A stretch of DNA of 63,896 bases, the filler included, from Licmophora abbreviata (Eukaryota): the NCBI GenBank assembly GCA_900291995.1. It is 9 parts of 9 records of this genome, joined end to end, with 100 filler letters (N's around TTAATTAATTAA, not from the genome) between each part and the next. Parts side by side here need not be neighbours in the genome. Positions count along the whole stretch, not along the records: positions 22,042 to 29,554 come from OLMU01002689.1; positions 29,655 to 42,519 come from OLMU01002690.1; 7 more parts are not named here. One strand, written 5' to 3'. The notes beneath the pieces are model-generated. The model searched no databases. It was not told where the DNA came from and saw only the letters and a program-made list of their open reading frames with translations. This document shows positions 16,445 to 38,677 of this stretch, piece by piece (position 1 is the first letter of the stretch; every line of letters starts with the position of its first letter). The position numbers and the translations under genes were made by a program.

Positions 16445-19400
16445 AACAGCGCCATAATGGCTTTCTGCCCGTCAACCTCCAGGAGAAGAGATGGATTTTC
16501 TTCGCAAGCCTACAAGGACAAATTTTTGTGCAAAGTGAATTTCCGATGAAGGAACGATGGGTATGGAGAAGAAAATGACACATACCTTCTGAAGCGCAAC
16601 AATAGCTGACAAGTTGCCCTCCGCAGCAATTAAGCTGAGAGCATGCAGACCGCCTACAAACCCTAGAATTTCTAGCGCCTTGTCGTGCTGTGCCATAGCA
16701 CACAGCATGACTACATCTGGAGCCTCCATAATGTCATCGTCCATCTTGACATCGTATTCTTCGAGCTTGGCCCGCTCAAGAAAGCGTGATATGACCATGC
16801 GACTCATTTTCTTGCCGAGATTTTGGGTGATAGCCACCGCTTCGGTTTCTGACATCTGCATCTTTGTCGGACCATCTGACTCAACCGAGCACAGATCCAC
16901 AAGGCAAGCCATGCATCTGCTGGAAGTACGCGATGACGTTGCCTCTGTATCGTCAGCGTCAACCGGTGCAACGTCGTCCTCGGCAAGACATGCTGCAGCC
17001 AAGGCCGCGATGGCACTGCTGCGTACCCCGAAGCGTTCGACTGAATGGCCTAGCAGGCCACTTTGCGCGAGAGATCCCAGAATGGTTGCAGTGAAACGAC
17101 GGACTTCCTCTCCGTCCACAGATTTAGACTCTTCTGATGTGTCCACGATTAGCATATCGAACAAAGACATCATAGCACGCTCTGACTCCACAAAGAGGGG
17201 TAGAATGTCATCTTCGTAAAGTGATATCATCGTTTTTGTCAGATCGTATGCCAATGTAAAAGCAACACGATCCTTCGACAGCGAGAGGCATAGCTGAGGT
17301 ACTTTGAAGCCAATGAGAAGAGCTTTCATGTAGGCATCATCGCCGCCAACGTCAATGCTATCAGAAAAGGGCATGGAGCTCTGTTTATCTAGAAAGCTCT
17401 TCAGTCTTTCCAACAGACGATGTTGGACAAGCGGGCGACGAATCTCTACGAATTCACGCTGCCGGTGCTCATCTGGCGGTGCGAAAGAGTCAGCCTTCTC
17501 AGAAGACAAAACGGAGAGAAAGTGAGCACACATCGCGGCCACTAATCTCCAGCTCTCTCCAGGCTTGTTCTCAGTCTCCGGATCATCTACGAAGATATTA
17601 TTCCAAACTCTCCCAGCTGATGCTGAATCCAAAGCCGCAGCGTAGGTTGCCAGATAGAAGAGGAGCGCGTTGCGGCATCGTGCGTATTGGTCAGACCGGC
17701 ACAGGCTTCCTGAACCAACACCAAAGGAGGACCGTACAGTGGTGGAATCCTATCCCGATCGTCGTTGGACTCTTGCGTACCACATTGTGGTAGCACCATG
17801 CCTGTTTCGAGAAGCAGCGTAGCACACAGCGCACTAATGAATTGAGGTTCGTGAGCCACGAGGTCGATGAGGTCATGCACAGCCGGGGAATGCAACACAG
17901 AGTGAGCCTCAGAGCCACTTTCGATATCAGAAAGAACAAAGTGAAGGATCTCAAGGCCCCAGAAGGCGATATCTGCACGGCTGTCGGTCGGCTTCTTGGG
18001 GTTGCGTGTGGCCGATCTACCAACTGACGCACAGACAGCCCGAAAGACACCACATTCCAGAAGCTGAGCGTAACGTCGGCATTCTTCGTTGCTGGCGAGG
18101 AGATGGAGAATTTCTAGAGCAAGAAGCGGAATGGAATCCCCTCCGCTAGCATCTTTGAGAAGAATTCCAAGCGGCTCCGCCAGTCCTGCCTGAGCAGCCG
18201 ACAAAGCGTGGGAAGGCAGTTGCACAATCTTGAGAACCGCTCGCAAAGCGGCACATCTGGTCTCCTGGCCTTGCGCGCTCGTCGCTCCATACTGAGAGGA
18301 TCCATGCAAGTAGCTAACAATAGAGGGAAGCGCGTCTTGGGATATGGCGCTCCAAAGCGATGCATTATTGCTCAAAGCCTCAAGCGTGCTAATACATTCC
18401 GATTTGAGACTCTCTTGCATTTCAAACAACCCGAGGTCCGCATTTGGATCAACTGGTAAGGTCAACACATTCGTGGCAACTTTAATTGCAGCGCGGACAG
18501 ACTGGAGGCCATCACTCTGCCCCGTGGCGACATGAGGCCCGCAGAATCGGACCAGGGCAAGCGAAACAGAGAATCGGAAAAGATCGCCTCCTACAAAAGA
18601 AATAGCGGGGCGAGGGACGTGGGTAAGTTCCAGTTACGTGCACCATTTCTTGCTAGCGCCAGGGCATAGAACCGTACATACCAGCAAGTGCGTTTCGCAG
18701 CGTGTCACTGATCGGTACCAAGAGACCACTCATTGCTAACTTTGAGTGCTGTTCGAGATTTCCGTGATGTGCGACGGCTAGGACGAGTCGCAAGGAAGCG
18801 TTAACCGCTCCCTCGCCAAAACCACCCACTAGCATCGTCGGAAGTAGCGAGCCTTGCCGTCCGCGAGAAACAAGAATATCACATGCGACTTTGCATGCCT
18901 CTTGGATACGAGTCTTGAAAGGGTCATCTTCCGATGGAGATCTCTAAGAAACAAGCACACAAATCAAGTGGGTTAGCGCGTCACCAGGTGCACCCAACCA
19001 AGTCATGAGACGAAGTAGCGCTATTTACCATGTGAGCAAGGCGTTCATCGCCTGGGGCCGTTGAAGATCCACACATGCTGCCCACGGCAAGCAAGGCCGC
19101 CTCAACCAAATCCATGAGCGCTGAGTGATAGTGTTCACCTTGGATGCCACCCCCCATAAGAGCCTTTCTCGCATAGCTCGAGCTTGTTTGAAGTATAGAA
19201 AGTGCGCCAGTTACAACGCTGTGTGGTGGTTCTCTCGAGTAGGCATCGGCGTCGACGACATCGTACAGTCGGTTCTGGCCCATTCTGGTTGCATCATCTC
19301 TGGCAATGGCAAACATGGCTGCAGCCATTCGACAGCATGCCTCGCGCGCCTTCATCCCACCCGCGGATCTGTCTTGCGACTCCCAGTCCATCTTGCGAAA

Positions 19401-21899
19401 GAGCATGCGGGAAATAGTCGACATGGCACCTGCATCGATCGCTTCCAGCAGCCGGTCAAGTAGGTCCGATTCGGATACATCGCCTCGCGTCCAGATGTTT
19501 GTAAGGATTGTAGCAGCAGTAACTAGCATCCCCAGACACCGCGGAGCCGCATCGCCGCGTAGCGTAGACGGTTTGTTCATGTCCGCTTCACTGGCAACGG
19601 CGAGCATTGACGAAACGGCATTTCGTGACTCCAGCTCTATCACAGCATCCACGGAGCAGACGGTCATTGACGATAACATAATACCAGCTCCCTCGCGTAT
19701 CCGCATGACCGGCGTGTCCCGAGAGGAGACAAGCGACTGGGACGACGACTCGAGTATCGACAATGCCACCGAAACAACGCCCTCCTCGTACAAGACAGAT
19801 ACCGCTTCTCGCAGTTCTCGGATACCATCGCTCGCTCTTGCCATCTCCGCAACAGACATTACGACGGCAGCGAGACACTCCATAGCAGTTTTTCGCAGGT
19901 CCGTTGGACGCGACATGCGACCTCCGTGTGCAGGGTCCCTGACGAGAGACAGTAGAGCGGGGAGACAGCTCCCGACAGCGATGGTAAGTGCAGCCTCTCG
20001 ACAAGCACCGAGTCCCGTATCATCTTGACGACAATCGTAATTCGAGGGAAGTGTGATCGTGCCACGAGGGTCCTCCAACAAAGGTAGGACAAGGGAGGAA
20101 ACAAAATCACACCCCATACTCGCGACCGAATTGTCGGCAGACAGCAACAGCTGTGACAATGACGAGCCACAGCCCCCGGAAGACACAATGGCGCGGATAA
20201 TATCACCATCTTTATCAGGCTCTTTTCCACCCTGACCGGTCATCTCCCGAAGAGTTGAGAGGCTGGCATCAATAGCGCGAGTCGCAACGAGTATCGCGCC
20301 GAGAGCACCCGTTGCATGCGCCCGCGTGTCCGGATCGTCAGCGCCAATCAGACTGCAAAGAATCATTATACCGCCTGTGGACACAAACTGGTCTAGGAAG
20401 GAAGCATATCCAAGAGCAGGCGAATACTCTTCACCAGAAGCCACTGCAGCAGCTACATCGTTGGCTGCCATACAGGTTCGACGCTGATCTTCTGTGACCA
20501 AGTTCCGAATGGTGGCGGCAGCCCAACGCTGGAGCGACGGGTTCTTGGATACTGACGAATGGTCCAGCATGCTTCTTATAGTCCTATCCATATCGAGAGA
20601 GTCAATACCGCCAAACCCAAAGTTATCGCTGCTGGCCGTGGCTTGTAATTGCTGCTGCTTGGGGGTGAGAGTATTCAGAATGGAGGAATCCGTCAAGTAG
20701 AACATAGCCCTCGCAGCCTGTTCCTGAACAAATAGTGTTTTACGACCCGTCCCACTGCGTTCCAGCAGTGTAAGTATATCGTCTATGGTCTGCTTTGCAC
20801 CGTAGAGGAACACCGCATGCGCAAACTCGGAATTCCCTACAATGCTGCCAACTGCCAGGAGCGACGCGAGTGCACGAATCGCACGATCGGATGTCTTTCG
20901 AAGCTTCAAGTGCTTGACAATAGCGGGAACGAGGACATCCGGAGGGATCGTTACTTTCGATTCAAAGCTGCTCGAGTTGTGAAGAAGCGAGTCAAGATCT
21001 GTCGTCAAGGCAGCAAGAGCCGCGGCCACGTTGGATGCTGTGGCGACACGATTCGTCTCGTCATCGTCGTCGTCCTCATTGTTGGATGGTTCGTACAGCG
21101 ACAGTGGTGTAAGGTAGCGCCTCATGGTAAAGAAATTTCCCTTGTCCACATCTTCATTGCAAAAGTCACATATACGAACGGGAGAGTCGAATTCAGGACC
21201 TTCCAAAGGCAGTGACACGCGATGATTGCTACAGGTGTCGCAAAAGACATCTCCGCAAAGTCGACAGTGATGCCGACGCTTGGACAAGGTAAAAATGTCA
21301 TCGCAATGAGGGCACTGCAACCGGAGTGAGTCTGCTACCTTTTGAACTTTAAAGTCCAGGGCAGGGAGTGTATCACTGAAGTCCACGTCCGAGTGAGCGT
21401 GATGCATGTAGGCCGAGTTGTGGTTGTACGAACGAGCCGGCGGTGCACGGGCAGCATCAGCGGCAGGTTTCGAAGTCGACCTCGATGTTGAGGACGATGA
21501 AGACTTGACGGTGGCTTGATTCTGTGACGAGGCCGAGCTCAGGATACGCTGAAACGCATTCGAAGCGGACGTCGAGGTCGTTCGCGATTGATTCGTGTTT
21601 CTACCTCCAGAGCTTGAATCGAGCGCTGTCGGTTTCGTCCAGGTGGTGATTTTGCGGGCATGATCAATGTAAAACTCCTTTCCAGTAGATGGATCGTGCA
21701 TAGTTTCCCAATTGGAGGGTAGTTGTTCGTCATTTTTGGGCATGGGAGGCGGTGTTGGAGGCAAATCGGGCTCCTCAATCCAGCCGGCGGGGGGATCCCA
21801 CTGAGTCTTTCGCGTGATCTTGTTGGCATAAAAGACTCGGCCAGACTTGGAGTCTGTGCTCTTCATCCATCCCTGCGATGCAGCAGGATTGTTCGCCAT
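16445..21899 (-). CDS. Large WW-WW-FYVE-armadillo/HEAT-repeat protein (>1700 aa; 3' end in gap)
   Basis: Two WW domains (GW...GRVFY.N..TRKTQWDPP; LP.NW...GKEFYIDH...TTW.KP), a FYVE domain (RRHHCRLCG...RICDFC) and long helical repeats. Introns 19028-18944, 18681-18591 and ~16586-16510. 1-nt frameshift near 17670. Confidence 0.8.
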
Positions 21900-22320
21900 C
21901 CTTTCCAGGCCTACGTTTATGAGGGAGATAGGAAGTCGGAGNNNNNNNNNNNNNNNNNNNNNNNNNNNNNNNNNNNNNNNNNNNNTTAATTAATTAANNN
22001 NNNNNNNNNNNNNNNNNNNNNNNNNNNNNNNNNNNNNNNNNAGTAAGGCTTATGGTATCGTCGCTACTCTTTTGTGTCTTGTAATCTTGTTTTCTTAACT
22101 CTTCAACGCGATGACTGCTTCCGAAGTGCTTCGAATGCACAGACGGGAAGTCGCGCGAGGCCTGAGCTGTGTGTATTTTGAACGAGCACCATTCTCCCAT
22201 GGCTTCGGTGAGTGAGCGCGTGAGTACCGCTGCGACACAACTTGGACATCACGGTCGTACGACATGCAAACAAACAACGAAGGAAGAGCATGACTTGTCT
22301 CATCGCTATTATACGGCAAC

Positions 22321-23478
22321 CTAGCTAGAATAATCCGACTTTACTTTGTCCAAGCCATTCAGACCATCGCTTGTCATCGACGTCGTATTCATCAGCAGCG
22401 CACTCGTAGCAGTCGTAGTAGGAGTGACATCGGTCGACTCTTCGATATCGCATGGTTCTCCGTCATCGTCGAGTTCACACATTTCTTCGTTCTTTCGCAA
22501 CCACCATGCCCCTCCGACGGATTCCATGTCCAGCCAGAAGAAGAGCATACCGTAGAGTACCCCCAACAGCGTGAAGATCCCGTGAGATAAGAATGCTCGT
22601 TGTCGCGTTTCCAAAAAACTCCCAAAGAGCACTCCAGCAAAGAATCCGCCAAAGACGACTGCATTCTGCAGCACCACGGCCTTGTCCGAATCCGTCAGTT
22701 TCTTTCGTCCACGCCTGCGCGAGAATCGATCGACGAAAACATGCGTCATTCTCGTCATGTGTCCCGTAACAACGAAGGTCAACGTTCCAGCTACTTCGGT
22801 ACCTATCGAATTGATGACTCCAAAGGCCGCCGCCAACAAACTGACCGAAAGCCATCGCAAGCTGATGGTAGTAGTGCAGTAGTTCACCACGTCGCTGAGT
22901 GTAAACAACGCCATGACCGCCACGCCACAGACTCTTACACATTGCTTTCTCAAACTCCAATCCAATCGTCGAAAGGCTGCAAGCCCCAGTATATAGGAGG
23001 CCATGACGCTTAGATAGTATGCTACCGTACTGTACTGTAGCTGAATCGCTGCAGTGGCCATCCACATGGTATTTCCAGTCATCATGGTGGCGAAGGTTTG
23101 GTATCTTCGGAACAAGCAAATGTCAGCCCAGCCCGTCAAGAATGCCATGCCTGCGGATAATCGCTTGTTTCTCTTGGAAGTAGTAGCAGTGGTAGTAGAC
23201 GATATAGCGTTTCCAGTGCTCAGATACAAACGAGATGTAGGCCTCCTTTCCGTAGGAAAAGTAGGAGCGGTGACGAGCAGATCATTGTTCCGTCGACGTG
23301 TCGTCGTCGGCGGCAGTGGTGAAACGCTGGCTGGTCTTGTCGTCGTCTGTAGGACGCCTCTGTTAGCGGACGAAGACAATCCCGGTGGTAGTGTAAAGCC
23401 TAATGTGCATTGGAGAACAATGAGCGATAGAAACAAGCCTACTAGAGGAGAAATGTGTTCCCGCTGGTGCATCACCAT
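22321..23478 (-). CDS. DUF1275/YoaK-family multi-pass membrane protein, probably plastid-targeted
   Basis: AFLTGWAD...FATMMTGN and TFVVTGHMT motifs, several TM helices. Signal peptide ending TLG-FTLP plus a Ser/Thr/Arg-rich transit peptide. Confidence 0.8.
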   Translation of the reverse strand: MVMHQREHISPLVGLFLSLIVLQCTLGFTLPPGLSSSANRGVLQTTTRPASVSPLPPTTTRRRNNDLLVTAPTFPTERRPTSRLYLSTGNAISSTTTATTSKRNKRLSAGMAFLTGWADICLFRRYQTFATMMTGNTMWMATAAIQLQYSTVAYYLSVMASYILGLAAFRRLDWSLRKQCVRVCGVAVMALFTLSDVVNYCTTTISLRWLSVSLLAAAFGVINSIGTEVAGTLTFVVTGHMTRMTHVFVDRFSRRRGRKKLTDSDKAVVLQNAVVFGGFFAGVLFGSFLETRQRAFLSHGIFTLLGVLYGMLFFWLDMESVGGAWWLRKNEEMCELDDDGEPCDIEESTDVTPTTTATSALLMNTTSMTSDGLNGLDKVKSDYSS

Positions 23479-23771
23479 CGTCGTCGTCGTCGTCGTCGGT
23501 TTGGGGTTTGCTTTTTGTGAGTGCGAAACTTTTTGGTTCGGTGGACTGCGCGCGTCGGGCTTGCGCGAAAGGCGGCGACCGATTTGACACATCTTTCTGT
23601 CTCATGCTCTGGATAATACTCTGATGGTTGATGATTTCGACACAGCATGTTGATGTTGTTGTCCCGCTGGTGAAGATGAGTGCCCAGTATCTCGTCGCCT
23701 CCAAGCATATCGTTGTCAAAGACCGAGCGACCAGCGGACGAAGACGGCCTCCTCTCACATCCTTCTGTAGG

Positions 23772-24925: not shown

Positions 24926-25753
24926 TTATTCCCGACTGGCCTGTCGATTTGCCACCACACTCAAATAGATGGTCCACACCAAAGAGCAAGCGTTGATAAA
25001 TAACGGGATCCACTTTGTGGGAATCATGGAGTAGCTCACTACATCCACAATTGGCCAAAAGCCAATTCCCGCCAAACAAGCTCCCGGCAAGTCGGACCGA
25101 ATCTTGTTCCACCAGTTGCGTAGCGAGAAAGTACCCTGTTGGAGCAACGACGTTGCGAAAAAGATGCACGTAAAGGAAGGACCGAAAAAGATTTGACCCA
25201 GGGCAGCCTTCTGCAGCGTGGAAGCGAGCGTTGTACTCGGCAAGATGCGAAAGATCATGTCATACCAAGCATGAGCGGCCGGACCAAAGTACAACAACCC
25301 GACCAGAGCAGAAGAGATGGTTCGTGTCCAATTTGTTTCCTTCTTTTCCTTGGATGTTTCCACTCGTTGCGCCAGCCAGTCGGACAGTGCAAAGACACAA
25401 GAGGCAGTCACGCTCTTGGTAATAATGGGGCGTTTCTCTAGAGAGGCGCTGTATGCCCTGCCCAGTGAGGCGAGAGCAGACGCCATGGGTGCCAACGAAA
25501 GTGACAAACGCGGTGATTTTTCTGGCTTGATCGCGTCGACGACACTGTCAGAATCGAGGTCTTGTTCGTAGTCTACAGGGTCCTCATCAACGACACCAGG
25601 ATCGTCTTGATCGCCCCCGCGCAAGTCCCACACAGTAGCGGCAACGGCGTGTGGCACAGAGACTCTCGAGAGACGAAACGCCGATGAAGCCCGAATCGAT
25701 AAAGCTTGTGATGGACCGAAAAGCCCAAGAAGAAGAGCCGGAAACAACCTCAT
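24926..25753 (-). CDS. Mpv17/PMP22 family membrane protein
   Basis: RPIITKSVT...LSDWLAQ, W.RT, GP..H.WY, Q..F.P, FWP......Y..IP and W..YLS motifs. N-terminal signal peptide. Confidence 0.92.
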   Translation of the reverse strand: MRLFPALLLGLFGPSQALSIRASSAFRLSRVSVPHAVAATVWDLRGGDQDDPGVVDEDPVDYEQDLDSDSVVDAIKPEKSPRLSLSLAPMASALASLGRAYSASLEKRPIITKSVTASCVFALSDWLAQRVETSKEKKETNWTRTISSALVGLLYFGPAAHAWYDMIFRILPSTTLASTLQKAALGQIFFGPSFTCIFFATSLLQQGTFSLRNWWNKIRSDLPGACLAGIGFWPIVDVVSYSMIPTKWIPLFINACSLVWTIYLSVVANRQASRE

Positions 25754-27022
25754 CTTGACAAAGGGCCGGTGACAGAGATTTTGGTGTAATGCTGTGTTGA
25801 CACTCGATGAGGAATCAATCGTCGCCAACAATCACACATCATGGCCATCTTCGATCGCGCCGATCGCAACACAAACTGACGTCAGTATCGGTCCCCGACA
25901 GACGTTTCACCTCACAGCCACGCATATCAGTCAGTACCTGGTTGTAATAGCTACGACGTACTCGAGTACATAGCTAGTCCTTCCTTGGAAGTTCGTAATG
26001 TTTGCCATCATCAGCAGAGCAGTCAATCGTCATACGCTTATTATATCCTCTCATCCTACTCCCGAACCAAGATCGCTTCTGCAAAATACGCAATAGAAAA
26101 GCGGCCGTAGGAAACTATTAGTTGCAATCAACAGACCCGCGCCAACCCCTCCCCCATATATATCATGTGCAATTCGTAGGTGGCCTCATCCAGAATATTG
26201 TCACGCTCATGTCTGTATCAATAAGAACAAACTCTTGTGATCTCAAACTTTATTGTTAGGAGCATCATTGGCCAAAATCAGTCACAGAACTTGTTTCGCC
26301 TAGAGGGTCGCTACAATTGCTAGTACTGCTCTCCTACTCTAGAGAGCCATTGGCGTCAGAAAATTGTGGTCTATTCGTCGTTCACAGAGTATAGTGCTCA
26401 TGTTTTCGAACCTTGCGGTCCAACAACAACAAAGCAGTGTCACGAGAATCTAGACTCGTCATTCGCCGTCAAGAGCGTTCCTATGCTAGTGCCTCAAACT
26501 ATAAGCTGCTGCGGCTGGTTTCTGTTCTCAGCAAATGTCATTCCAAAACTACAATGATGGTCGTACCTTGCGATGGTGGCTCACGGTTTTTTCCCTTGCA
26601 GCGGTCGTCACGATGGGCAAGAGCGATCCGCTGCAGTCCTCCGTCACACCTTCCTGGTGTTTCGGGGTGCTGTGGTACCTGAGGTGCATCAGGAGAAAAG
26701 CAAGGCGATGAGGTGCGGAGCGGCGTTCGTCATTGGTCAGTGGAAAGTTTGTTTGCCGTTTTAATTGATTATGCAGCCCGGAAGCTATTTTAATGCTCCG
26801 AACGGAATATTTGGAATTTCGGACGCACGACGATCACACGACAGAGCGCGGCGCGCCAGACACAAACATGAAGGACGACGACGACAGCACACAGCGTGAC
26901 GTTCCCACATCGTTCATTGCGAGCACGAGTCAAGTAAGATCGATCGAACCTTCAGGACTCTGTTCGGCAAAAGATTCATAGCAATCGTGTGGTGCACAAG
27001 AATATAGACCAAATTCGGCACT

Positions 27023-30000
27023 ATGAGTTCTCTTGCCGCTTCCATCGCTTCTGGTGCCCGTCATGCGGTCCGACGCTTGTCTAGCTCCAATCTCGACGGC
27101 GGCAATAACAACGAGAGTCCAGCCGTGGCGAGTGCTTCGCCTAGTGAAAAACACGTTGGAATTCTCGCAATGGAAGTCTACACGCCCTCGACCTATGTCA
27201 AGCAGAGCGCCTTGGAAGAACACTCGGGCGTCAGTGCGGGCAAGTTCACGATCGGACTGGGACAAGACGGATTGGGCGTCTGTGGAGATGCCGAAGATGT
27301 CAACAGTCTCTGTCTTACCGTCGTTCATTCCTTGCTGGAAAAGTAAGTGCAGTACGAGCCAGAAGCGACAAGCGACCATATGTATGCCCTCTCTAACATT
27401 CAAGTCACTGCTCTCGTACTTTTAGGTACGCCATTGACCCGTCCGAAGTCGGTCGCCTCGAGGTGGGCACGGAAACTCTGGTAGACAAGTCCAAGAGTGC
27501 CAAGACTATTTTGATGGACTTGTTTCCCGGGAACACCGATATCGAGGGTGCTACCATCATTAATGCCTGCTATGGTGGAACTGCGGCACTGCTCAATGCC
27601 TTTGCATGGGTCGAGAGTGACGGATGGGATGGTCGCTATGCCATTGTCGTGGCGGCCGACATTGCCGCCTATGCCCGAGGTCCGGCGCGACCCACCTGTG
27701 GGGCAGGCGCGGTGGCTCTATTGATTGGACGCGACGCGCCCTTGGCCTTTTCCAATCCCCGGGAACGTGCCACGCATGCTGCCAATGTGTGGGATTTCTT
27801 CAAACCGGACCATACGGTCGAGTACCCTACGGTAGACGGAGCCCTCTCCCAAGTTTGTTACTATCGTGCCTTGGAAGATGTCTATCATCGGTTTGTGGAT
27901 AAAGTGAGGACGGAGAAGGAAGAGTTTACCGCAGAGTCGCCGGACTATTTTGTCTTTCACGCACCATACAACAAGTTGGTGCAAAAGTCATATGCACGTT
28001 TGTACCTACTGGATGCCAGGCGACGACACAGCCAAGAGGAAGAAAAGAAGGAAGCGATTGATGAGCCGCTTGGACCCTGGTTGACCAAACCCGTGGAGGA
28101 AACGTACAGTGACCGACAGCTGGATGGCGTTCTCAAGACTTTGTCGAAAGAGTCGTTTCAGCAACGACTTGTCGATGCCAACGCTGCCAGCAAGGCGGTG
28201 GGAAATACCTACACGGCCAGTGTATTCCTCGGTCTTGCGTCATTGATTGACCGTGCGGGAGGACGTGGTGAATTGACTCCCGGCAAAACGGTGGCTGTCT
28301 TTAGCTATGGGTCTGGAGCTCTCGCTACCTTGTATCGTCTTCATGTGTAAGTGTCGCTCACTGGGAGTCTGGCCTTACGAGGGCAAGGTTATTCCTGCAT
28401 CGTTTGCATCTCACCTTCATGTTTCTCCATTGTCGATATCGACTTAGTCGCGAGCCGACAAACCAGTCTCGCTTTCGTATCGAGCATATGGCCAAGACCA
28501 TGTCCTTGACGGAGCGCCTATCGTCTCGCGAGGAAGTGCATCCCAGCGAGCTTGATCATGCCTTGGAGACACGGGCACGCATGCACCGCGCCGGTGCTCC
28601 GTATTCACCCGTATACCCCAATGCCGGTCGACTCTTTCCTGGAACGTACTATCTGAATGGGATCGATTCCAAGTGGACACGCTCCTACTCACGCGTGCCC
28701 CTGGACGCAGTCATGGAACCGCATGGCAAGTCGCCGTTGGCCCCACCGATTGTGTTACGATTGGCGCAACGCGACGCTTTGGCGAGTCCAGTGACGGGAA
28801 AACTAGAAGTATTGGCTTCTGCCGCAGAAGGCAATAGCGACAAGATTACCGAAGCTCGTCGTCGTATCGCATGTGTCATTACAGGAACGGCCGCGGGTCT
28901 TCCCGGTGACGATCGACATGTCTTTCGTGACGACAACATGGAGAGGTTGGTTTCTGGAGAGCAGTGTATTGCGTCCATTAGTGGTAGTACGAAGATGGCG
29001 TTGTTAGACAAGAAAGTTGTACAAGTCAAGAAGTTGGCGGACGGTACCATCAAGCGCGAGCCGGTGGATACCGAGGCAGGAGGTATCAAGCTTGCCGCTC
29101 AACTCGGACATTTGGACTTGTCGGCATCGTACGGCGTACCCCGTGGACTTGCTGAAACCATGGATGTCGCTGCTCAGGTCGCCGTTGCGGCAGGAATGGA
29201 GGCACTCAAGTCTGCAGGTCTTGTCGGTGGCCGAACGAATGATCCGAACGAATGGAAAGTCCAGGAACAGTACCGCGATAGTACAGGAGTCGTGTATGCA
29301 TCGAGCTTTCCTGCTATGGATGCAGCTGTCGGTGAAGTTATGAGATTCTTACAGTCTAAAACTGTCGGTGCAGCCGACTCGATGCGCTTAGTATCAGCTC
29401 TACGCTCTCGGCTTCTACGCGCGTCGCATGAGCGTGAGCTTTCTGCGGACGACGAGGCAGCCTTTGCGAGGTTGTTGGCTCGTGCCAAGGAGACGGACGG
29501 AACGGACGATGACGAATCTGTGGTTAACAAGGCATACGTGTTTGATCGCAAGTTNNNNNNNNNNNNNNNNNNNNNNNNNNNNNNNNNNNNNNNNNNNNTT
29601 AATTAATTAANNNNNNNNNNNNNNNNNNNNNNNNNNNNNNNNNNNNNNNNNNNNGTTAACAAGGCATACGTGTTTGATCGCAAGTTTCTATTCCGCGTTT
29701 TGGTCCTAGGCAATGCGCAGCTCGCCCAACTGGCTGGCTGCCGTGGTCCGAATACACAAACAAATGCAGCCTGTGCTGGAACAACACAAGCAATCGCCAT
29801 GGCCCAAGACATGCTTATTTCTGGGCGCGCAGAACGGGTCGTTGTCGTTGCCGGCGATAACGCGTCGGGAGACACACTCCTGCCTTGGCTAGGTTCGGGT
29901 TTTCGCGCTCTCGGCGCTGCGTCGACGGCAAGCGCAGTAGAAGACGCTGCGTGCCCCTTCGACAAACGCCGAGCAGGCTTGCTCCTGGGCGCTGGCGGTA

Positions 30001-30581
30001 TTGGGTTAGTTCTCGAAACAGAGACGAGCTCCATAGACCGCCAGAAGTTATCTGACAATCCTTTTGATGTGAAGGCTCGTCTCCTTCAAACTCAGTACTC
30101 CAATTCGGCATTCCACGGTGCAGCGCTTGACCGCAAACATATTGGAGCGGAGATGAAACGTTTCTTGACCGACATTGAAATGATTCACGGCATTAGCAAG
30201 GCGGAGATCGCCACTCACGGAGTATACTTTTCTCACGAGACCATGACGCATGCCTCTGATGCGTCCAGTTGCGCCGGAAACGAGGTTGCTGCCCTTCGAG
30301 AAGCCTTTGGCGACGAGCTCCTCTCCAAGCTACTCATCCTCAACACCAAGGGCTATACTGGCCACCCCATGGGTGTCTCGTTTGAAGACGTCGCCGCCGT
30401 GGAGGTGCTCATGCGACAGACTGTCCCCGCCGTTCCCAACTACCAAGTCGAGGACGACTATTTGGGCTCTCTCAATATCTCCAAGGGAGGGCCCTACGCC
30501 TGTCGATATGCTCTGAGGTTCGCCGCAGGCTTCGGCAGCCAGGTAGCATTTGCTCTTTATGCCACAGCCCAGTATGAGTAG
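27023..30581 (+). CDS. HMG-CoA synthase fused to a C-terminal beta-ketoacyl synthase (KS) domain, ~1080 aa
   Basis: Exons 27023-27342, 27426-28346 and 28448-29554(+29687-30581; the gap flanks overlap by 32 nt) total 3243 nt in frame. HMGS motifs: GRLEVGTET, NACYGGT, FHAPY, GNTYTAS, FSYGSG, LFPGTYYL. KS motifs: VITG, GPNTQTNAACAG, PFDKRR.G, SHETMT, TKGYTGHPMG, AGFG. Confidence 0.92.
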
Positions 30582-30751: not shown

Positions 30752-31458
30752 CTACGTTTGGATGTCTAAAGTGTCCATGATAACCTTGAGAGAGTCCCGA
30801 GCAATGACAACCTGCTTTTTGGCTTCATTCAAGTACTTGAGTACTTCATCCTTTCCGCCCCCTGGGTTGTATTCCTTCAATCGACAAGACACGTGTAGGG
30901 ATAAGGTCAGATAGCGATTCATGAAGTGAGAGGCAGTGCGCTCATTGTGCTACGTACCCCAAATTGACTGATAAAGGCCATTGAGTTGCTCATATTCATT
31001 GCGGCGTTCCACTCCTCTGAAGCTTCAAAGAAGGCATCAAGCTTGTCAGGATCGATGTCCATGTTCTTGACCTTTCCGAAGACCTTTTCGATCTGAAACA
31101 GAGGGTCCGTCGTACTCCTTAGTCCGAGTGCTTTGCGAATGGGATCCGCATCACGCTTGCACTCTCCTCCATTCTCTCGACACACGGTTGTTTCCTGTTC
31201 AAAGTTTTCTAGAAGGTACACGAGTCCATCGTAGCCTTTCCTGATTCGATCGAGATCTGCCTGAGTAGGGGCGCCAGCAGCCATGGCAGGGAATGGATTC
31301 GAAACTAGAACTGCGGTCGTCGTCAATCCGAAGGTTGATAGGACAGCTTCACGGCGACTCAGCTCTCCATTCTGCGTAACTCTCGTTGGCTCTATCGAGA
31401 AGGCATCTGCAGACACCAGCAATAAAGCGGCGAGGGTGGAAACGCGGCGCGTCATCAT
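30752..31458 (-). CDS. Conserved-looking thylakoid-lumen protein of unknown function, 2 exons
   Basis: ADA-FS signal, SRRE twin-arginine motif, hydrophobic stretch and AMA cleavage site. Intron 30957-30875 adds EYNPGGGKDEVLKYLNEAKKQV...IQT*. Confidence 0.8.
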
Positions 31459-31820
31459 GGTCGTCAGTTGGGGACAGAAGCATGCGGCGTTGTGACAACA
31501 TGATGTGGAGTTTGAAACTTTCGACACGTATGTTAACCCTGTCAGTACTGAAATACTGAAATACCGCGTAGATTGTACGTGGCAAGACGGAATCTTTGAC
31601 CTCCGAGGTTTTCTTGCACAAGTTTCTTACACAAGAGTCGAGTCATCGGAGGATTCCATTCGTGGGGAGGCATGGCTTGCACGACGAGAATGAAAGCTCT
31701 GATTGCTTGGATAGATGGGATTACCGTAAGATAGTCGATGTCGCAGCGTAACTAGCAAAGTCGCTTTAGCTAACGTTCCACATAATCATTCATTGGAATC
31801 TTCTTTTTACAAAATCACTT

Positions 31821-33290
31821 CTATGCTGTCCGATCCACTACCTTGTAGGCCAAGTGTGCCAGCGAATCTCGATGGGCACCTGCTCCCAGCTCCATGATCG
31901 CCTCCACCGCAAGTTCGGAATGGACCCGTGCAAGCTCCTTTGTCTGCTGAATACCCTCGCTTTCATTCACCATTGCTACCGCACCTTCCACGTCTCCTTC
32001 TTGTCGAAACTTGCGTTCCATCAACTCCATCAAAGACGGGTGCTGCTCAGCAGCAAAGAGGACCGGGGCGGTCGCGAGGCCGGCATTCAAGTCACTCAGT
32101 GCGGGCTTGCCCATGGCGGAGGCACTGCCTTCAAAGTCCAGCACGTCATCGACCAGTTGAAACGCCATGCCAATGTGCTTACCGTATCGATACGAAGCGT
32201 CGACAAGCTCTTCCGGGTAGTTCCCCAGCAGCGCCGCGCTCTTGCACGAGTTGGCCATGAGACTTCCCGTCTTATAGAAATTCTTCCGCAAGTAGTAGAT
32301 GACTCGATTCTCAATCACGCTGTGCGGGCTAGTGGCGTCGTCGCCGTGGCCTTTGAGCTGCATGACTTCCCCGCGTACAAGGTGTTCGATAATGGTCGAC
32401 ATGGTTTCAATCACATCGGCATGACGAAGTCTCGCCAAGGATATAGAAGCACGTGCCAAGAGATAATCACCTGCCAGAATGGCCATTTTGTTGCCAAAGA
32501 CCTTGTGCACTGCTGGGACGCCACGCCGCGTATCAGCTCCATCAATCACGTCGTCATGAAACAAGGATGCCGTATGAATGAGTTCTGATATCTCAGCCAA
32601 GCGCCGTTGTGCTCGTGGCAAGTCTCTTCTCTGCCACGAAAAGGGCGATGTCCATAGTGACGAGGACTGTTCCGACTGTGCAGTAGTGCCTACCGCATTA
32701 CCGCCACTGCCCATGGTGTCGGCAAGCGCCCGAGAAATCAATAAGACCATAAGCGGCCGAACCTTCTTTCCGCCATCGGCAGACGACTCAAAGAAGTAAG
32801 ATGCAGCCTTGTGCAGCACTGGGTGCTCAGTTCCAAGCAAATCTTGACGGATCGTAGCGGAAAGTGAGTCGAGCTCCCCCTTTGCGAGCGCAAAGGGATT
32901 CGCGCCCTCATCCAAAGGACGAACGGCCGAGGGCAACGACGGCCAATATGCTGTCTTTCTGTCCAAGAACCAGTTATCTAGTGGATCCTGTGTGAACGAG
33001 GATGAGTCAATGTCGTATTCATTGTGTTCTGTTCCGTTTGATGAGTGCGATCCGTTCACATGGCTGCTCCAAAGACTCGAGTCAGCTTTAGAGGCCTCTT
33101 TCAAAAAGGAAGATTTGACAGCGTCGCGGACCGATTCTGGCAAGGGCAAGTCTAGAATTGACGCTGATGATGATTTGGCTCTCGATAACAGGACAGGATG
33201 GGACTGCTCTAACGATCGGTCGGTCCGTGAAGCCCCTCCACGACAGCGAGCAGGAAACTTCGCCAATCGGCGTATTGGGCTTGCGGACAT
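31821..33290 (-). CDS. Long-chain trans-prenyl diphosphate synthase (solanesyl/decaprenyl-PP synthase, COQ1/PDSS1-like), likely mitochondrial
   Basis: GGKKVRP, HTASLFHDDVID (FARM, with small upstream residues indicating long chain), RRG, GD.LLA, KT and FQLVDDVLD (SARM). Arg/Ser-rich N-terminus. Confidence 0.93.
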   Translation of the reverse strand: MSASPIRRLAKFPARCRGGASRTDRSLEQSHPVLLSRAKSSSASILDLPLPESVRDAVKSSFLKEASKADSSLWSSHVNGSHSSNGTEHNEYDIDSSSFTQDPLDNWFLDRKTAYWPSLPSAVRPLDEGANPFALAKGELDSLSATIRQDLLGTEHPVLHKAASYFFESSADGGKKVRPLMVLLISRALADTMGSGGNAVGTTAQSEQSSSLWTSPFSWQRRDLPRAQRRLAEISELIHTASLFHDDVIDGADTRRGVPAVHKVFGNKMAILAGDYLLARASISLARLRHADVIETMSTIIEHLVRGEVMQLKGHGDDATSPHSVIENRVIYYLRKNFYKTGSLMANSCKSAALLGNYPEELVDASYRYGKHIGMAFQLVDDVLDFEGSASAMGKPALSDLNAGLATAPVLFAAEQHPSLMELMERKFRQEGDVEGAVAMVNESEGIQQTKELARVHSELAVEAIMELGAGAHRDSLAHLAYKVVDRTA

Positions 33291-33703
33291 GCAGGATCCT
33301 TGGAAACTCTCAAAGGAGCGAAAATAACTATTCCAAAATCACAATTTGGATCTCACAGCACTACTTCGCGCAGCGATTGAAGCGAGAGCCACGAGAGGTC
33401 CGTTTGTTTGCATGGAACAGCAGAGACAACCGAGACGGTGACGAAGACGTCAGTAGAAGGTGGAAAGCGCGTTTGTGGTGTGGGTCGGTGCATCGCCGGT
33501 CGGCGGAAAGTCGAATGAATCTTAGGACTGAGGTGGCCGTCCTATATAACCCGGATATGATGTCGAATTCCATACAAGTCATGGTCATTCGAGGTGGTCA
33601 TCAGTCGATAAGTAAGCTTATGTCCTTCCGTGCTTTGGGTAGTTTTGATACTTTGCACTTCGTACCGCGAAAGTCGCCATCAGCGAAAAACACGACCACG
33701 ACG

Positions 33704-34659: not shown

Positions 34660-35318
34660 CTAGTTACTGTACTGTCGTCGATCAACGTTTTTGAATCTAG
34701 AAGCAGCAATACTATCAGATCACCAAGCAACGTACTGGAGTGGCCGCAATCCTGCTGGATGGTTCTCATGCTGTATCCCAGCAAGAACTTGAGCGACCAT
34801 GAACACGATGATAGAGCAGTATGAGTGTACTATACGCACTTCTTCAAATCTTCCCTGTAGCAAGCAATTCAGTTGTTGGTACCGGCATATTATACTCTAC
34901 ATGCAATGGTATCATAGCCTACACGAACCTCGGTTCGAACTGTTTTGCTTGGGCGCATAACCAGCCACACTGGTGGTTACTACTCGTAGGGTTATGACAG
35001 AGGTGCGTTTCGCTTTCTTACGTCGTCACGATGACGCAAGTCGTTTAGCTGCGGTACTGAGGTGCGCGAGCCTTGTCAACTACTTATTGAACGGACAAGG
35101 TATATCTATTACGTGTCCGGATTTTCATATAGTTTGAAATCAATGAATTCGCGCTGACGAGTCTTGTACAGCCAAATCCCGTGAAATATGGTCACAGATT
35201 TGTTGCGCTTTGTTGAGCCTCCGCGGTGCTGGCAGTTTTGCCGCAGTAAGAGACGAACACAATCACTTGTCACGCTATAAATTTGTTTGGCGGTGAGTCT
35301 TGATTCACCCTTCTCAAC

Positions 35319-36500
35319 ATGGCACCGAAACCCTTCGAGTACAAAGTAGACGGCTCGTTGAAATGTCCCGCGTCCCCCACCGTGAGTCGTCTCGATGGGG
35401 AAGAGACGAAACAGATTCGACGAAACAGTATTGTCACAGAGACGCCAGTAAGCTTTGAGTACAAGGCGCCTCCACTGTCGCTCGTCGTGCTGGGAATCTT
35501 TGGCCAAGATGGCGAATATGACTACGTACAAGAGAAATACGTTACCCCTCCCATGACTCGCTACCGTCTCATCACCACCGACCCCGAACACGAGGATTAC
35601 GAAGATGCCAGATTTATACCAGTCGAAGGCCTCGTCGCCGAGGACGGCCCACACGACTTTTATCACAACGACCGGAGCGAAGGCCTACCAAAGATAGGAG
35701 ACCGCGCGATTCTATTTCAGAGCATTGAGAATTACGAGACCGTCAGCAAAGCTCCCCAAATTGCAGAATATATGCACTTCCACGACAAAGACTACCAAGA
35801 CGAGAATCAGCCTGTCACTCTCACGGACCGGGAACTCCTCAAGGAACGTGCACTGGCTGATAGTCGCTTTGGCGAACAGATTATTGTCGAAGGTGCATCG
35901 CCGGAGGACATTGCGCTTGGAGACATCTTTGAAGTCGCTGGCGGCTCCAGTACTCTCAAGGTCCAAGTCACATGCCCCCGAAAGGCCTGCTACTACCTCG
36001 ACAAGAAGAACAAGACGCCCATGGGATCTCGAGGAATCAAAAAATATGCCACGCAGTATGGTCTCGCTGGGTGGTTCACGAGTGTTCTGGTCGAAGGCGA
36101 GCTCAAGGACGGCATGTCTCTTGTGCGCACCGAACACCCGTACCCCAAGTGGACCCTTGCCAACCTGTCGCACGCTCTTTATGGTGGCGAGGGAGACCTC
36201 AAAGCCTTGAATCGCGGCGCCGCCAGCTGGGGTCGATCCAAAGAAGAGCTCCAGGAGCTCATGGACATTGAAATTCTCTGCGGTGAAGAATGGAAAGACG
36301 AGCTCCAACCCCTGATGGACAAAATTATCGAAGATGAAGGCATTACAGGCCAAATAGAAACGACAGTCTCTTCGTGGGTGGAATCCGTTACGAGTATGTT
36401 TTCACAGCTTTGCGTGGTACCGACGACCATTGCGGGGTGTATGGAATTTGGTACTTTCGAACATTTTGAAGATGATTTTGGTGCCAAGTGGACGTCATGA
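35319..36500 (+). CDS. MOSC-domain protein (YiiM-like)
   Basis: FGEQI.VEG...I.LGDIF...QVT.PRKAC..LD...GWF..VL.EG...G..L....HP.P.WTL, with the conserved MOSC Cys. Confidence 0.8.
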   Translation: MAPKPFEYKVDGSLKCPASPTVSRLDGEETKQIRRNSIVTETPVSFEYKAPPLSLVVLGIFGQDGEYDYVQEKYVTPPMTRYRLITTDPEHEDYEDARFIPVEGLVAEDGPHDFYHNDRSEGLPKIGDRAILFQSIENYETVSKAPQIAEYMHFHDKDYQDENQPVTLTDRELLKERALADSRFGEQIIVEGASPEDIALGDIFEVAGGSSTLKVQVTCPRKACYYLDKKNKTPMGSRGIKKYATQYGLAGWFTSVLVEGELKDGMSLVRTEHPYPKWTLANLSHALYGGEGDLKALNRGAASWGRSKEELQELMDIEILCGEEWKDELQPLMDKIIEDEGITGQIETTVSSWVESVTSMFSQLCVVPTTIAGCMEFGTFEHFEDDFGAKWTS

Positions 36501-36816: not shown

Positions 36817-38460
36817 TTAGTCTTCACCGTACACAAGCTCAGGAGATGACGGCGGGTCGTCGTCGTCATCTCGGCTTCTGATACGTCGTGTACGAGTGGA
36901 TTCCGCAACGTCGAGAGGCTCGTCGTCGTCCGAACTAGCACCGTCGTCGTGAGATCCAAAGACAACATGATTATCCTCATTTTCCTCATCGTCATCATCG
37001 GCCGTCGGAGCCGGGACGAGACGTCGACGACGTGGACGGACCGCACGATCATGTGTTGCTGCTATTGTCCGACGGCCATCTGGCACAACCGTCCCAAACA
37101 AAGGAGCCGCTGACAAGGGACGCTCCTGCTCCTCCTCACTATCACTACCGCCACTGCTGCTGTTGCTCTTATATAGGTTGCCTGCTCGTTCCCCATTCAT
37201 TTCCAAGTCCGTGGTGGATTCCGGTTGCGACGATGCGCGTCCTCTTCCCTGATGGATGGTTGTATTGTTATTCCGAGCACCCTTTCCCCCTTCGTCGTCG
37301 TCGTCGTCGTCTAGCAATGGCAGCAAGAGAAAGTCTACAAAACTAGGCGATCCGTCTCCGATATCATCGATCGGCACGACTTGATGCTGGATGGCAATCA
37401 TGCCATCTTGATTGATGCTAATACACGTTTCTTGCGCACTCTCCAGTGCCCGCATCCCCAACCACAGTGCGTAGAGCGGATAGGTGCGTGCCTGCGGCGA
37501 GTTGCACTCCAAGAACAAGAGGCACGAAGCACTTCCATGGTCGTCCGGTATGACATCTGCCGAGGAGGGAGGTGGTAGCAAGGACAGGACGACTTCACAC
37601 GCATGCCCCACGACGGCCAGTTCGAGTCCAGTGTCGGGAGAAATGGCAACGGTACAGCGTGTAGAAGTATCGTTGACATTGTAACACTCCAATTCTTGCA
37701 GTGCATCCTTCAAAACGTCACTCTGTACCAAGAGTCGTGCTGCAACGGGAGTGGATCGAAAGGCGGTTGCGAGCGAGGCAATGTTGTTCGTGTGGTCGTG
37801 GGCCGCGTAAAGTCCTGGAATGGCGGCCTTGGAGAGAAGCGCTGCACCTCCCGCGTCGTCCAGCAAGAGTTCCATGTGCAGCACTTCTTGAGTGGCATTG
37901 TAGGCCAGGCCGACCTTGCATCGATCGAGATGGTGTGTGCCCAGAACGTGGAGGCACTCCAGGACTGTCGTGAGATTGACACAGAATGAGGGCGGTTGAT
38001 GGGTGCCGTCTTTGTTGTTCGACACTCGATAGTCGGCAAAGAGTCCTGCCTGCAGGTCGACACTGGCATGACTGGTGTGAGCCGCACCCTGGACATGGAA
38101 CGTAAGAGATGTTGGATGACAGACGACCGTGACGGGAAGTAGCTTCTTATTGTTGCTGGCTGCTGCTGCTGTTCCGGAATACGACAGTGAGGTCGATGCG
38201 GACGTATTCGTAGTGTTGTTCAGGCCTGCCTGATGACGACCCTTGTCCATGACTAGGCATCGGAGGAGTGTGGAAATGACACGCGAGGATTCACATTGAC
38301 ATGACAAGAGGTACTCGTCTTCTTCTTCTTCTTCGTGCTGCGGCTCGTCGCCGGTGTGTCGCGCGGAAGATGACATGGATGCAGCGGGTGAGAATGACGA
38401 TCGTGGAGTCTTTTGCGTTTGAGACGGTGTCGTCGCTGGATCTTCATTGAGTTCTGACAT
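36817..38460 (-). CDS. RAD1: Cell-cycle checkpoint 9-1-1 clamp subunit Rad1
   Basis: PCNA-fold motifs LFADY, FCVNLTTVLECL.VLG, L.DALQEL and AL..A..TCISINQDGMI.IQH..FVDFLLLP. Acidic C-terminal tail. Confidence 0.8.
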   Translation of the reverse strand: MSELNEDPATTPSQTQKTPRSSFSPAASMSSSARHTGDEPQHEEEEEDEYLLSCQCESSRVISTLLRCLVMDKGRHQAGLNNTTNTSASTSLSYSGTAAAASNNKKLLPVTVVCHPTSLTFHVQGAAHTSHASVDLQAGLFADYRVSNNKDGTHQPPSFCVNLTTVLECLHVLGTHHLDRCKVGLAYNATQEVLHMELLLDDAGGAALLSKAAIPGLYAAHDHTNNIASLATAFRSTPVAARLLVQSDVLKDALQELECYNVNDTSTRCTVAISPDTGLELAVVGHACEVVLSLLPPPSSADVIPDDHGSASCLLFLECNSPQARTYPLYALWLGMRALESAQETCISINQDGMIAIQHQVVPIDDIGDGSPSFVDFLLLPLLDDDDDDEGGKGARNNNTTIHQGRGRASSQPESTTDLEMNGERAGNLYKSNSSSGGSDSEEEQERPLSAAPLFGTVVPDGRRTIAATHDRAVRPRRRRLVPAPTADDDDEENEDNHVVFGSHDDGASSDDDEPLDVAESTRTRRIRSRDDDDDPPSSPELVYGED

Positions 38461-38677
38461 TCTGGATGGCGGTGCGGTCTTTCAAGGCTGGGCTGGGGGA
38501 AACGACGCCGTTGTCTTGAATGTGCCGTCGTCGCCACCATGGTGGATGTGATTGCGCGGAAAAAATGGCGCGCTCGCATCCTCCGGGGGACACGTACGCA
38601 GCACGGACTGTCGTCTGGCCACGCAAAAAACTCTCGCAACAGTGTCACTTTTTACTTTTTGGCAATTTCATTGAACC

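Follow-up and report, generated by a model that had tools for sequence, protein, structure and literature searches.

In a 63,896-nucleotide stretch of Licmophora abbreviata DNA (GenBank assembly GCA_900291995.1), made up of nine records joined end to end and referred to here as the window, we identified a plus-strand gene at 27023-30581 that codes for a natural single-polypeptide fusion of hydroxymethylglutaryl-CoA (HMG-CoA) synthase (HMGS) and a beta-ketoacyl synthase (KS). Both active sites are intact, and the fusion is conserved, and transcribed in relatives. The KS half is a divergent FabF-like ketosynthase, which we name KS'. As modelled from open reading frames (ORFs) under the standard code together with the raw sequence, the gene has two GT-AG introns and four coding stretches (27023-27342, 27426-28346, 28448-29554, and 29687-30581); these join to 3243 nucleotides (nt), or 1080 codons, with no internal stop and one terminal stop, TAG, and the in-frame spliced length claimed in an earlier note on this DNA is therefore correct. 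The 1080-amino-acid (aa) protein consists of a eukaryote-type HMGS (aa 43-496), a 55-aa linker (aa 497-551), and KS' (aa 552-1080), and its gene is laid out as follows.

27023..27342 (+): exon 1, with the start codon, an N-terminal extension of ~42 aa (...ARHAVRRLSSS...), and the beginning of the HMGS N domain (Pfam HMG_CoA_synt_N, 76.3 bits, residues 43-106)
27343..27425 (+): intron 1, 83 nt, GTAAGT...TTTTAG
27426..28346 (+): exon 2, HMGS core (HMG_CoA_synt_N, 154.7 bits; HMG_CoA_synt_C, 181.9 bits; TIGR01833, 366.6 bits)
27472-74, 27568-70, and 27958-60 (+): exon 2 catalytic residues Glu123, Cys155, and His285, respectively
28347..28447 (+): intron 2, 101 nt, GTAAGT...CTTAG
28448..28694 (+): exon 3, first part, the C-terminal end of HMGS, to aa 496 (HMG_CoA_synt_C profile positions 205-279 of 280)
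28695..28859 (+): exon 3, linker (aa 497-551) containing the conserved LAPPIVLRLA.RD, in a continuous frame without stop or splice site
28860..29554 (+): exon 3, N-terminal half of KS' (Pfam ketoacyl-synt, 20.2 bits), including a helical insertion lacking in FabF
29555..29686 (no strand): assembly linker (29555-29654), then a 32-nt copy of the left flank (29655-29686); non-biological
29687..30581 (+): C-terminal half of KS' (Pfam ketoacyl-synt, 28.6 bits; ACP_syn_III, 33.3 bits), with the stop TAG at 30579-81
29772-74, 30234-36, 30348-50, 30363-65, and 30531-33 (+): KS' catalytic residues Cys812, His966, Lys1004, His1009, and gate Phe1065, respectively

The ATG in exon 1 is the earliest in its ORF, and the exon ends at the donor AA↓GTAAGT. 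Left unspliced, intron 1 leads to an immediate in-frame TAA, and its removal restores both the frame and the continuity of the HMGS_N profile (positions 66 to 70). All six active-site motifs that the earlier note had named were located: EVGTET, NACYGG, and FHAPY for the Glu/Cys/His of HMGS and NAACAG, SHETMT, and KGYTGH for the Cys/His/His of the KS, at aa 119, 153, 284, 809, 965, and 1004, respectively. The catalytic Glu within EVGTET is one which we take to be E123. A search for RNA sequencing runs of this organism gave none, apart from one run of uncertain kind (0.07 of words), and a single 240-nt contig was placed, at 27591-27830, with none on the junction between the two halves.

The halves are joined by the flexible 55-aa linker inside one exon. 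Translated by itself, exon 28448-29554 matches the final part of HMG_CoA_synt_C (exon residues 6-82, E 6.5e-10) and, 60 residues further on, the start of ketoacyl-synt (residues 143-284), the latter at 20.2 bits and thus slightly below its cut-off of 20.8. Because this exon alone carries both domains, the fusion is independent of splicing and of the assembly gap, and the claim that HMGS runs into the KS through a ~55-aa linker in one contiguous exon is borne out. The junction lies 860 nt upstream of the gap, within unbroken sequence. The gap itself, at 29555-29654, reads N44-TTAATTAATTAA-N44, and is one of eight N44-TTAATTAATTAA-N44 linkers of 100 nt each that join the window (11883, 16345, 21942, 29555, 42520, 47228, 48412, and 53067). 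Only at the linker inside the HMGS-KS' gene, one of the eight, do the flanks overlap, by the 32 nt noted earlier. Once the overlap is collapsed, translation across the join gives ...YVFDRKFLFRVLVLGNAQ... (in a longer display of the same join, ...YVFDRKFLFRVLVLGNAQLAQLAGCRGPN), which is colinear, with no indel, with 7/7 orthologs displayed.

For a structure model we used the closest full-length ortholog (P0001, 1071 aa), which is 78% identical over exon 3 and 85% identical over the KS' region, and ran AlphaFold2 on an 82-sequence alignment; structural and residue statistics given here rest on orthologs together with the exon-joined model. The P0001 model has a mean predicted local distance difference test (pLDDT) score of 87.4 and a predicted template modelling (pTM) score of 0.56, with two confident domains and low pLDDT in the linker at 517-539.

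The N-terminal 495 aa make up an entire HMG-CoA synthase of the eukaryotic type. On its own, exon 2 reaches 366.6 bits with TIGR01833 (HMG-CoA-S_euk) against a cut-off of 286.2, bacterial and archaeal HMGS models score far below TIGR01833 on the same exon, and PF01154 and PF08540 are well over their cut-offs on exons 1-3. In the ortholog model, this half matches human HMGCS1 (2p8u_A) with TMt 0.91, a root-mean-square deviation of 2.4, and 44% identity; identity is 47-48% to Brassica HMGS, and 19-24% to the HMGS of polyketide synthase (PKS) type (CurD, 5kp5; PksG, 4yxv). An N-terminal motif, ~ALAVGA..GA...AARRLS, precedes HMGS in many orthologs, and in 27023-27148 (aa 1-42) it reads ...SGARHAVRRLSSS; the extension is disordered in the AlphaFold model (pLDDT 26-32). 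By common consensus patterns, the extension may be a presequence for an organelle, processed at Arg-x-Leu↓Ser, or may carry an RRxS kinase site.

The C-terminal 530 aa form a complete FabF-fold condensing domain. The best match of KS' among PDB sequences is Escherichia coli FabF/KAS II (1kas/1b3n; phmmer, E 1.9e-11), of which Cys163, His303, Lys335, and His340 align to NAACAG, SHETMT, and KGYTGH of KS', and in the structure model of the ortholog the KS' half aligns with FabF along the entire target at 18-21% identity (4ls8_B, TMt 0.88; 1kas, 0.89). All the residue classes with which KAS I/II enzymes transfer acyl groups and decarboxylate malonyl units are retained in KS': a Cys, two His, a Lys, and the gate Phe. 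It scores 87.2 bits with the fabF model TIGR03150, the cut-off being 493.75, and it falls under the cut-off of every NCBIfam KS model. The helical insertion stands before the KS' active-site helix, with helices at 695-757 in the P0001 model. A domain check of the 1080-aa model, as the earlier note had suggested, gave Pfam matches to HMG_CoA_synt_N, HMG_CoA_synt_C, and ketoacyl-synt on the exon translations. No match at E <= 0.01 was found there for Ketoacyl-synt_C, or on the four exon translations for Thiolase_N and Thiolase_C, and Pfam found none of the PP-binding, AT, KR, and DH domains in the fusion protein.

Distribution of the fusion and relatives of KS'

A word-indexed homolog search with exon 3 as query, covering proteins of 645-2000 aa, gave 127 matches, the best 120 of which were listed. 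Among these 120, at least 67 homologs are 950 aa or longer, and 67/67 carry PF01154, PF08540, and PF00109. Ten of the 67 long orthologs are MMETSP transcriptome ORFs (from Pseudo-nitzschia, Nitzschia, Dactyliosolen, Staurosira, Thalassiosira, Leptocylindrus, and unnamed sources), and the fused reading frame is thus present on mRNA in relatives. The other 53 listed matches are 645-825 aa long, and all but two (51/53) start with the HMGS_C tail, as expected from ORF calling at exon 3. The best homologs are 78-79% identical over exon 3 and have the same four Pfam domains. When the 67 orthologs are taken together with the window gene, the HMGS Glu, Cys, and His and the KS' Cys are present in 68/68 rows, and the KS' His, Lys, and His in 66/68, the remaining two rows being truncated. 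A proteome survey for the same architecture had been proposed in the earlier note, and we found it in diatoms and, outside them, in an oomycete (Pythium insidiosum, 961 aa) and a phaeothamniophyte (Phaeothamnion confervicola, 1090 aa).

We checked for stand-alone HMGS using 31 database 'HMGS' entries, those of 400 aa or more among the 120 matches listed in a separate search. Thirteen end at model aa 414 and two at aa 410/412, the exon 2/3 boundary; eight end at ~aa 479-483, one ends at aa 423, and two (including that of Seminavis robusta) end within the linker. Five others end at aa 496-501 and could be partial or truly unfused. Diatom entries named 'HMG-CoA synthase' without the KS' half include P0331 (Seminavis robusta, 504 aa), P0344 (Haslea ostrearia, 412 aa), and P0372 (T. 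pseudonana 'partial', 449 aa). In a metagenome-assembled genome (MAG) of Bacillariaceae, the HMGS and KS' halves (P0354/P0009) stand under the adjacent locus tags SGILL_001183/SGILL_001182, a split annotation. Because entries end at the exon 2/3 boundary or in the linker, or are split in two, the fusion is under-annotated in the databases, where fusion proteins are named 'hydroxymethylglutaryl-CoA synthase' or 'beta-ketoacyl-ACP synthase I'.

The architecture itself is not new, since the fusion is present in these databases and in a table from 2009. Table 2 of Morris et al. 2009 lists an HMGS-KS fusion for P. sojae, T. pseudonana, and P. tricornutum 16649 (PMC2705460); it occupies one table row, in which domain order, residues, and function are not given, and the passages of text accompanying the table add no further comment (PMC2705460). 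We identify the window gene as the bifunctional HMGS-KS' gene of stramenopiles, orthologous to P. tricornutum 16649, T. pseudonana 260768, and P. sojae 128154. In the relevant passages of diatom papers, Phatr3_J16649 is called simply HMG-CoA synthase, and 16649 is the sole HMGS cited there for P. tricornutum (PMC6330534; PMC12168105).

By sequence, KS' is placed in an uncharacterised KS clade. An exhaustive phmmer search with its C-terminal half against 1.84 billion representatives gave 2714 matches at E <= 1e-3. Next in rank behind the HMGS-fused matches are proteins of 1500-4000 aa (43-52% identity, E about 1e-80) in which the KS' domain follows a canonical KS-AT; the diatom KS' HMM spans the entire ~510-aa domain in these megasynthases, whose sources are MAGs of Heimdallarchaeota, Thorarchaeota, the 'Asgard group', and Deltaproteobacteria. 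Pfam searches on six of them (P0138, P0141, P0145, P0147, P0149, and P0153) gave the order [NMO]-KS-AT-KS'-ACP(1-4)-KR-DH-PPT, where ACP is an acyl carrier protein. They resemble polyunsaturated fatty acid (PUFA) or enediyne synthases, with an extra intact His-Glu-Thr KS between the AT and the ACPs, and no papers on these KS'-bearing megasynthases were found in the literature searched (open full texts, without supplements). The link between the KS' half and the KS clade of the Asgard/deltaproteobacterial megasynthases appears to be new, apparently being undescribed in that literature.

We compared 133 complete KS' domains (27 HMGS-fused, 24 'KS-only', and 82 megasynthase), a set that excludes 33 of 148 representatives with incomplete domains and includes 17 of the 67 close orthologs. 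Of these domains, 133/133 have the Cys, the first His with the Glu after it, the Lys, the second His, and the AGFGSQ Phe, and 13 positions are specific to the HMGS-fused clade. A FastTree tree of 136 rows, with three canonical KS as outgroup and Shimodaira-Hasegawa-like supports, places the megasynthase KS' domains in one clade (support 100) and all fused proteins together with six KS-only proteins in another (97); the window KS' falls within the clade of fused proteins (98), and a Prymnesium parvum protein belongs to a third, loose set. Two readings of particular residues were rejected. A carrier domain concealed in the KS' insertion was considered, but its candidate Ser is present in 15/27 fused rows only and variable elsewhere, and there is no PP-binding match; chain length cannot be read from the Trp of TLLPWLGSGF, a residue that is family-wide and is present in 78/82 megasynthase domains.

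Five KS-only eukaryotic proteins have transmembrane (TM)-like N-termini (Kyte-Doolittle > 2.1 over 19 aa): P0157 (Prymnesium parvum KAL1522032.1), P0130, P0134, P0135, and P0166. Other non-fused eukaryotic KS' proteins (P0139, P0143, and P0254) are 800-1200 aa long and have weak methyltransferase matches upstream of KS'. No carrier domain was found in the non-fused eukaryotic KS' proteins, which, together with the five TM-like N-termini, points to a CoA-using, ACP-free setting in eukaryotes.

Possible roles of the KS' half

Of the roles considered, the likeliest for KS' would be the malonyl-dependent supply of an acetoacetyl thioester to HMGS, a reading to which we give a probability of roughly 0.4. 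HMGS needs acetoacetyl-CoA and has attached to it a decarboxylating condensing domain without a carrier, and acetoacetyl supply is for this reason the simplest interpretation; that enzymes acting one after another in a pathway become fused is a general principle. KS' would load acetyl from acetyl-CoA onto Cys812 and join it to a malonyl thioester in a decarboxylative condensation; as the fusion protein is without a carrier domain, malonyl-CoA is the simplest candidate for that thioester. The acetoacetyl thioester would be released beside the tethered HMGS, which would then form HMG-CoA by adding a second acetyl-CoA. The mevalonate pathway would in this way gain an irreversible entry, driven by acetyl-CoA carboxylase. 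This would be the logic of NphT7 of Streptomyces, which converts acetyl-CoA and malonyl-CoA to acetoacetyl-CoA and CO2 and feeds the mevalonate pathway, achieved via an unrelated KAS-II-like domain. A more specific proposal is that stramenopiles enter the mevalonate pathway via a carrier-free, malonyl-CoA-dependent acetoacetyl-CoA synthase, a member of a previously unrecognised His-Glu-Thr KS clade tethered to HMGS and a eukaryotic convergent counterpart of NphT7; we regard this as tentative and, in its entirety, somewhat doubtful. The other homes of the clade are the second KS of megasynthases and the membrane-anchored KS of haptophytes and other protists, so the family may include CoA-using FabF-fold condensing enzymes.

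Several points weigh against acetoacetyl supply by KS'. KAS I/II enzymes are classically ACP-dependent, and because the nearest non-fused KS' domains are in tandem-ACP megasynthases, the ancestral substrate was probably malonyl-ACP, not malonyl-CoA. After its His, KS' has Glu-Thr (His-Glu-Thr) where FabF has His-Gly-Thr. With confident domains, a low-confidence linker, and a pTM of 0.56, the model predicts no defined HMGS-KS' interface, and the conserved N-terminal ...RRLS motif may signify a non-cytosolic location. The literature searched yielded no functional study on either the fusion or the KS' clade. Furthermore, a separate acetoacetyl-CoA thiolase (AACT) is drawn in the P. tricornutum pathway as presented in one paper's relevant part (PMC10276504), and the enzyme is tabulated for oomycete mevalonate (MVA) pathways in a passage of another (PMC5289490); with thiolases annotated in diatom and oomycete pathways, a conventional route may therefore exist.

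It is also conceivable, but unlikely, that the partner of KS' is a carrier acting in trans, such as a free ACP, mitochondrial or other. The longer beta-ketoacyl thioesters that KS' would then make could either go into a product of lipid or polyketide-like kind or be beta-branched by the HMGS half, as in bacterial HMGS cassettes. The relatives of KS' embedded in ACP-bearing megasynthases would fit such a role, as would its C-H-H/K/F set, which is that of elongating KAS I/II, and the conserved N-terminal ...RRLS, which could be an organelle presequence. The HMGS half, however, is of the eukaryotic CoA type, with TIGR01833 over its cut-off and 44-48% identity to human and Brassica HMGS versus 19-24% to the ACP-dependent PksG/CurD, which weakens the 'beta-branched lipid' option raised in the earlier note, and no ACP, AT, KR, or DH is present in the protein or among the 10 neighbouring ORFs scanned. 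A trans-acting carrier also sits poorly with the place of the gene as the HMGS of diatom pathway maps, as these appear in the relevant passages (PMC6330534; PMC12168105).

We consider it improbable that KS' condenses two acetyl-CoA without decarboxylation, in the manner of a thiolase, and so replaces or duplicates AACT beside HMGS. The pathway logic would be the same, the thiolase superfamily fold is shared, and there is no carrier domain; yet the Cys/His/His/Lys and gate Phe of KS' are the decarboxylation set and not the Cys/His/Cys triad of thiolases, and neither Thiolase_N nor Thiolase_C is matched in the fusion protein. Equally little credence can be given to KS' as a non-catalytic module for dimerisation, scaffolding, or regulation of HMGS: the KS and HMGS folds are both obligate dimers, and no activity is recorded in the literature searched, but the catalytic residues are invariant across diatoms, oomycete, and family (133/133), a pattern expected from selection on catalysis. 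Finally, although a scaffolding linker does lie inside the KS' domain, it is very improbable that the fusion is an artefact, made out of two adjacent genes through misassembly at the gap or an erroneous gene model, given a junction 860 nt upstream in unbroken sequence, a 32-nt flank overlap whose join is colinear with orthologs, and at least 67 full-length fused orthologs, transcriptome ORFs included.

Diatom and oomycete isoprenoid work, including P. tricornutum engineering, treats the gene as an ordinary HMGS. If KS' does supply acetoacetyl thioester to HMGS by decarboxylative condensation, a major algal lineage and the oomycete pathogens would have their first committed mevalonate steps arranged differently from animals, fungi, and plants, flux control would shift towards acetyl-CoA carboxylase, and metabolic engineering could draw on a single gene as a thermodynamically driven module leading from acetyl-CoA to HMG-CoA. 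With the KS' clade uncharacterised, a single assay would serve to annotate hundreds of proteins from archaea, bacteria, and protists.

Neighbouring genes

The HMGS-KS' gene is adjoined by a second isoprenoid-pathway gene, a polyprenyl synthetase ORF 1.2 kb downstream and convergent with it. An ORF between the two has no Pfam match at E <= 1e-4. These and the other scanned neighbours named are:

18981-21941 (-): WW-FYVE-Arm
22321-23598 (-): DUF1275
24926-25828 (-): Mpv17/PMP22
30919-31626 (-): 235-aa ORF between the HMGS-KS' gene and the polyprenyl synthase
31821-33335 (-): 504-aa ORF, Polyprenyl synthetase (216 bits), with a long N-terminal extension
35304-36497 (+): MOSC
36817-38478 (-): Rad1

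Comparison with known systems

The fusion tabulated by Morris et al. 2009 has the same domain pair and, by our homolog searches, is the same orthologous gene, the species being different (PMC2705460). The HMGS half is like eukaryotic cytosolic HMGS (human HMGCS1, 2p8u; Brassica juncea HMGS1, 2f82/7cqt) in its TIGR01833 match, its Glu/Cys/His set, and, in the ortholog model, its fold (TMt 0.91) and identity (44-48%); unlike these enzymes, the fusion adds a C-terminal linker and KS' of 585 aa and an N-terminal extension of ~42 aa. KS' is similarly like FabF/KAS II (E. coli 1kas, B. subtilis 4ls8, human OXSM 9n50) in fold (TMt 0.86-0.89), in the residues corresponding to Cys163/His303/Lys335/His340, and in the gate Phe of GFG, but it is only 18-21% identical, has His-Glu-Thr and an extra helical insertion, is fused to HMGS, and scores 87 bits against the 494 cut-off. 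The second KS of the Asgard/deltaproteobacterial PUFA-synthase-like megasynthases belongs to the same KS' family, with 43-52% identity, whole-domain HMM coverage, and an identical catalytic set; unlike the fusion KS', it adjoins ACPs and forms a separate clade (support 100 versus 97).

The reaction of NphT7 is the same as that proposed for KS'. NphT7 is a stand-alone KAS-III-like enzyme with Cys/His/Asn, whereas KS' is Cys/His/His and fused, and fabH models give it 18-19 bits against cut-offs of 249-292. In the archaeal complex, a non-decarboxylating thiolase is held with HMGS by DUF35, and the bacterial PKS HMGS cassette has a KS-DC without Cys and an ACP-dependent bacterial-type HMGS, in both cases as separate polypeptides. 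Like the fusion, each physically couples a thiolase-superfamily condensing enzyme to HMGS; the fusion differs from both in being one polypeptide, and the cassette HMGS is 19-24% identical to its HMGS half.

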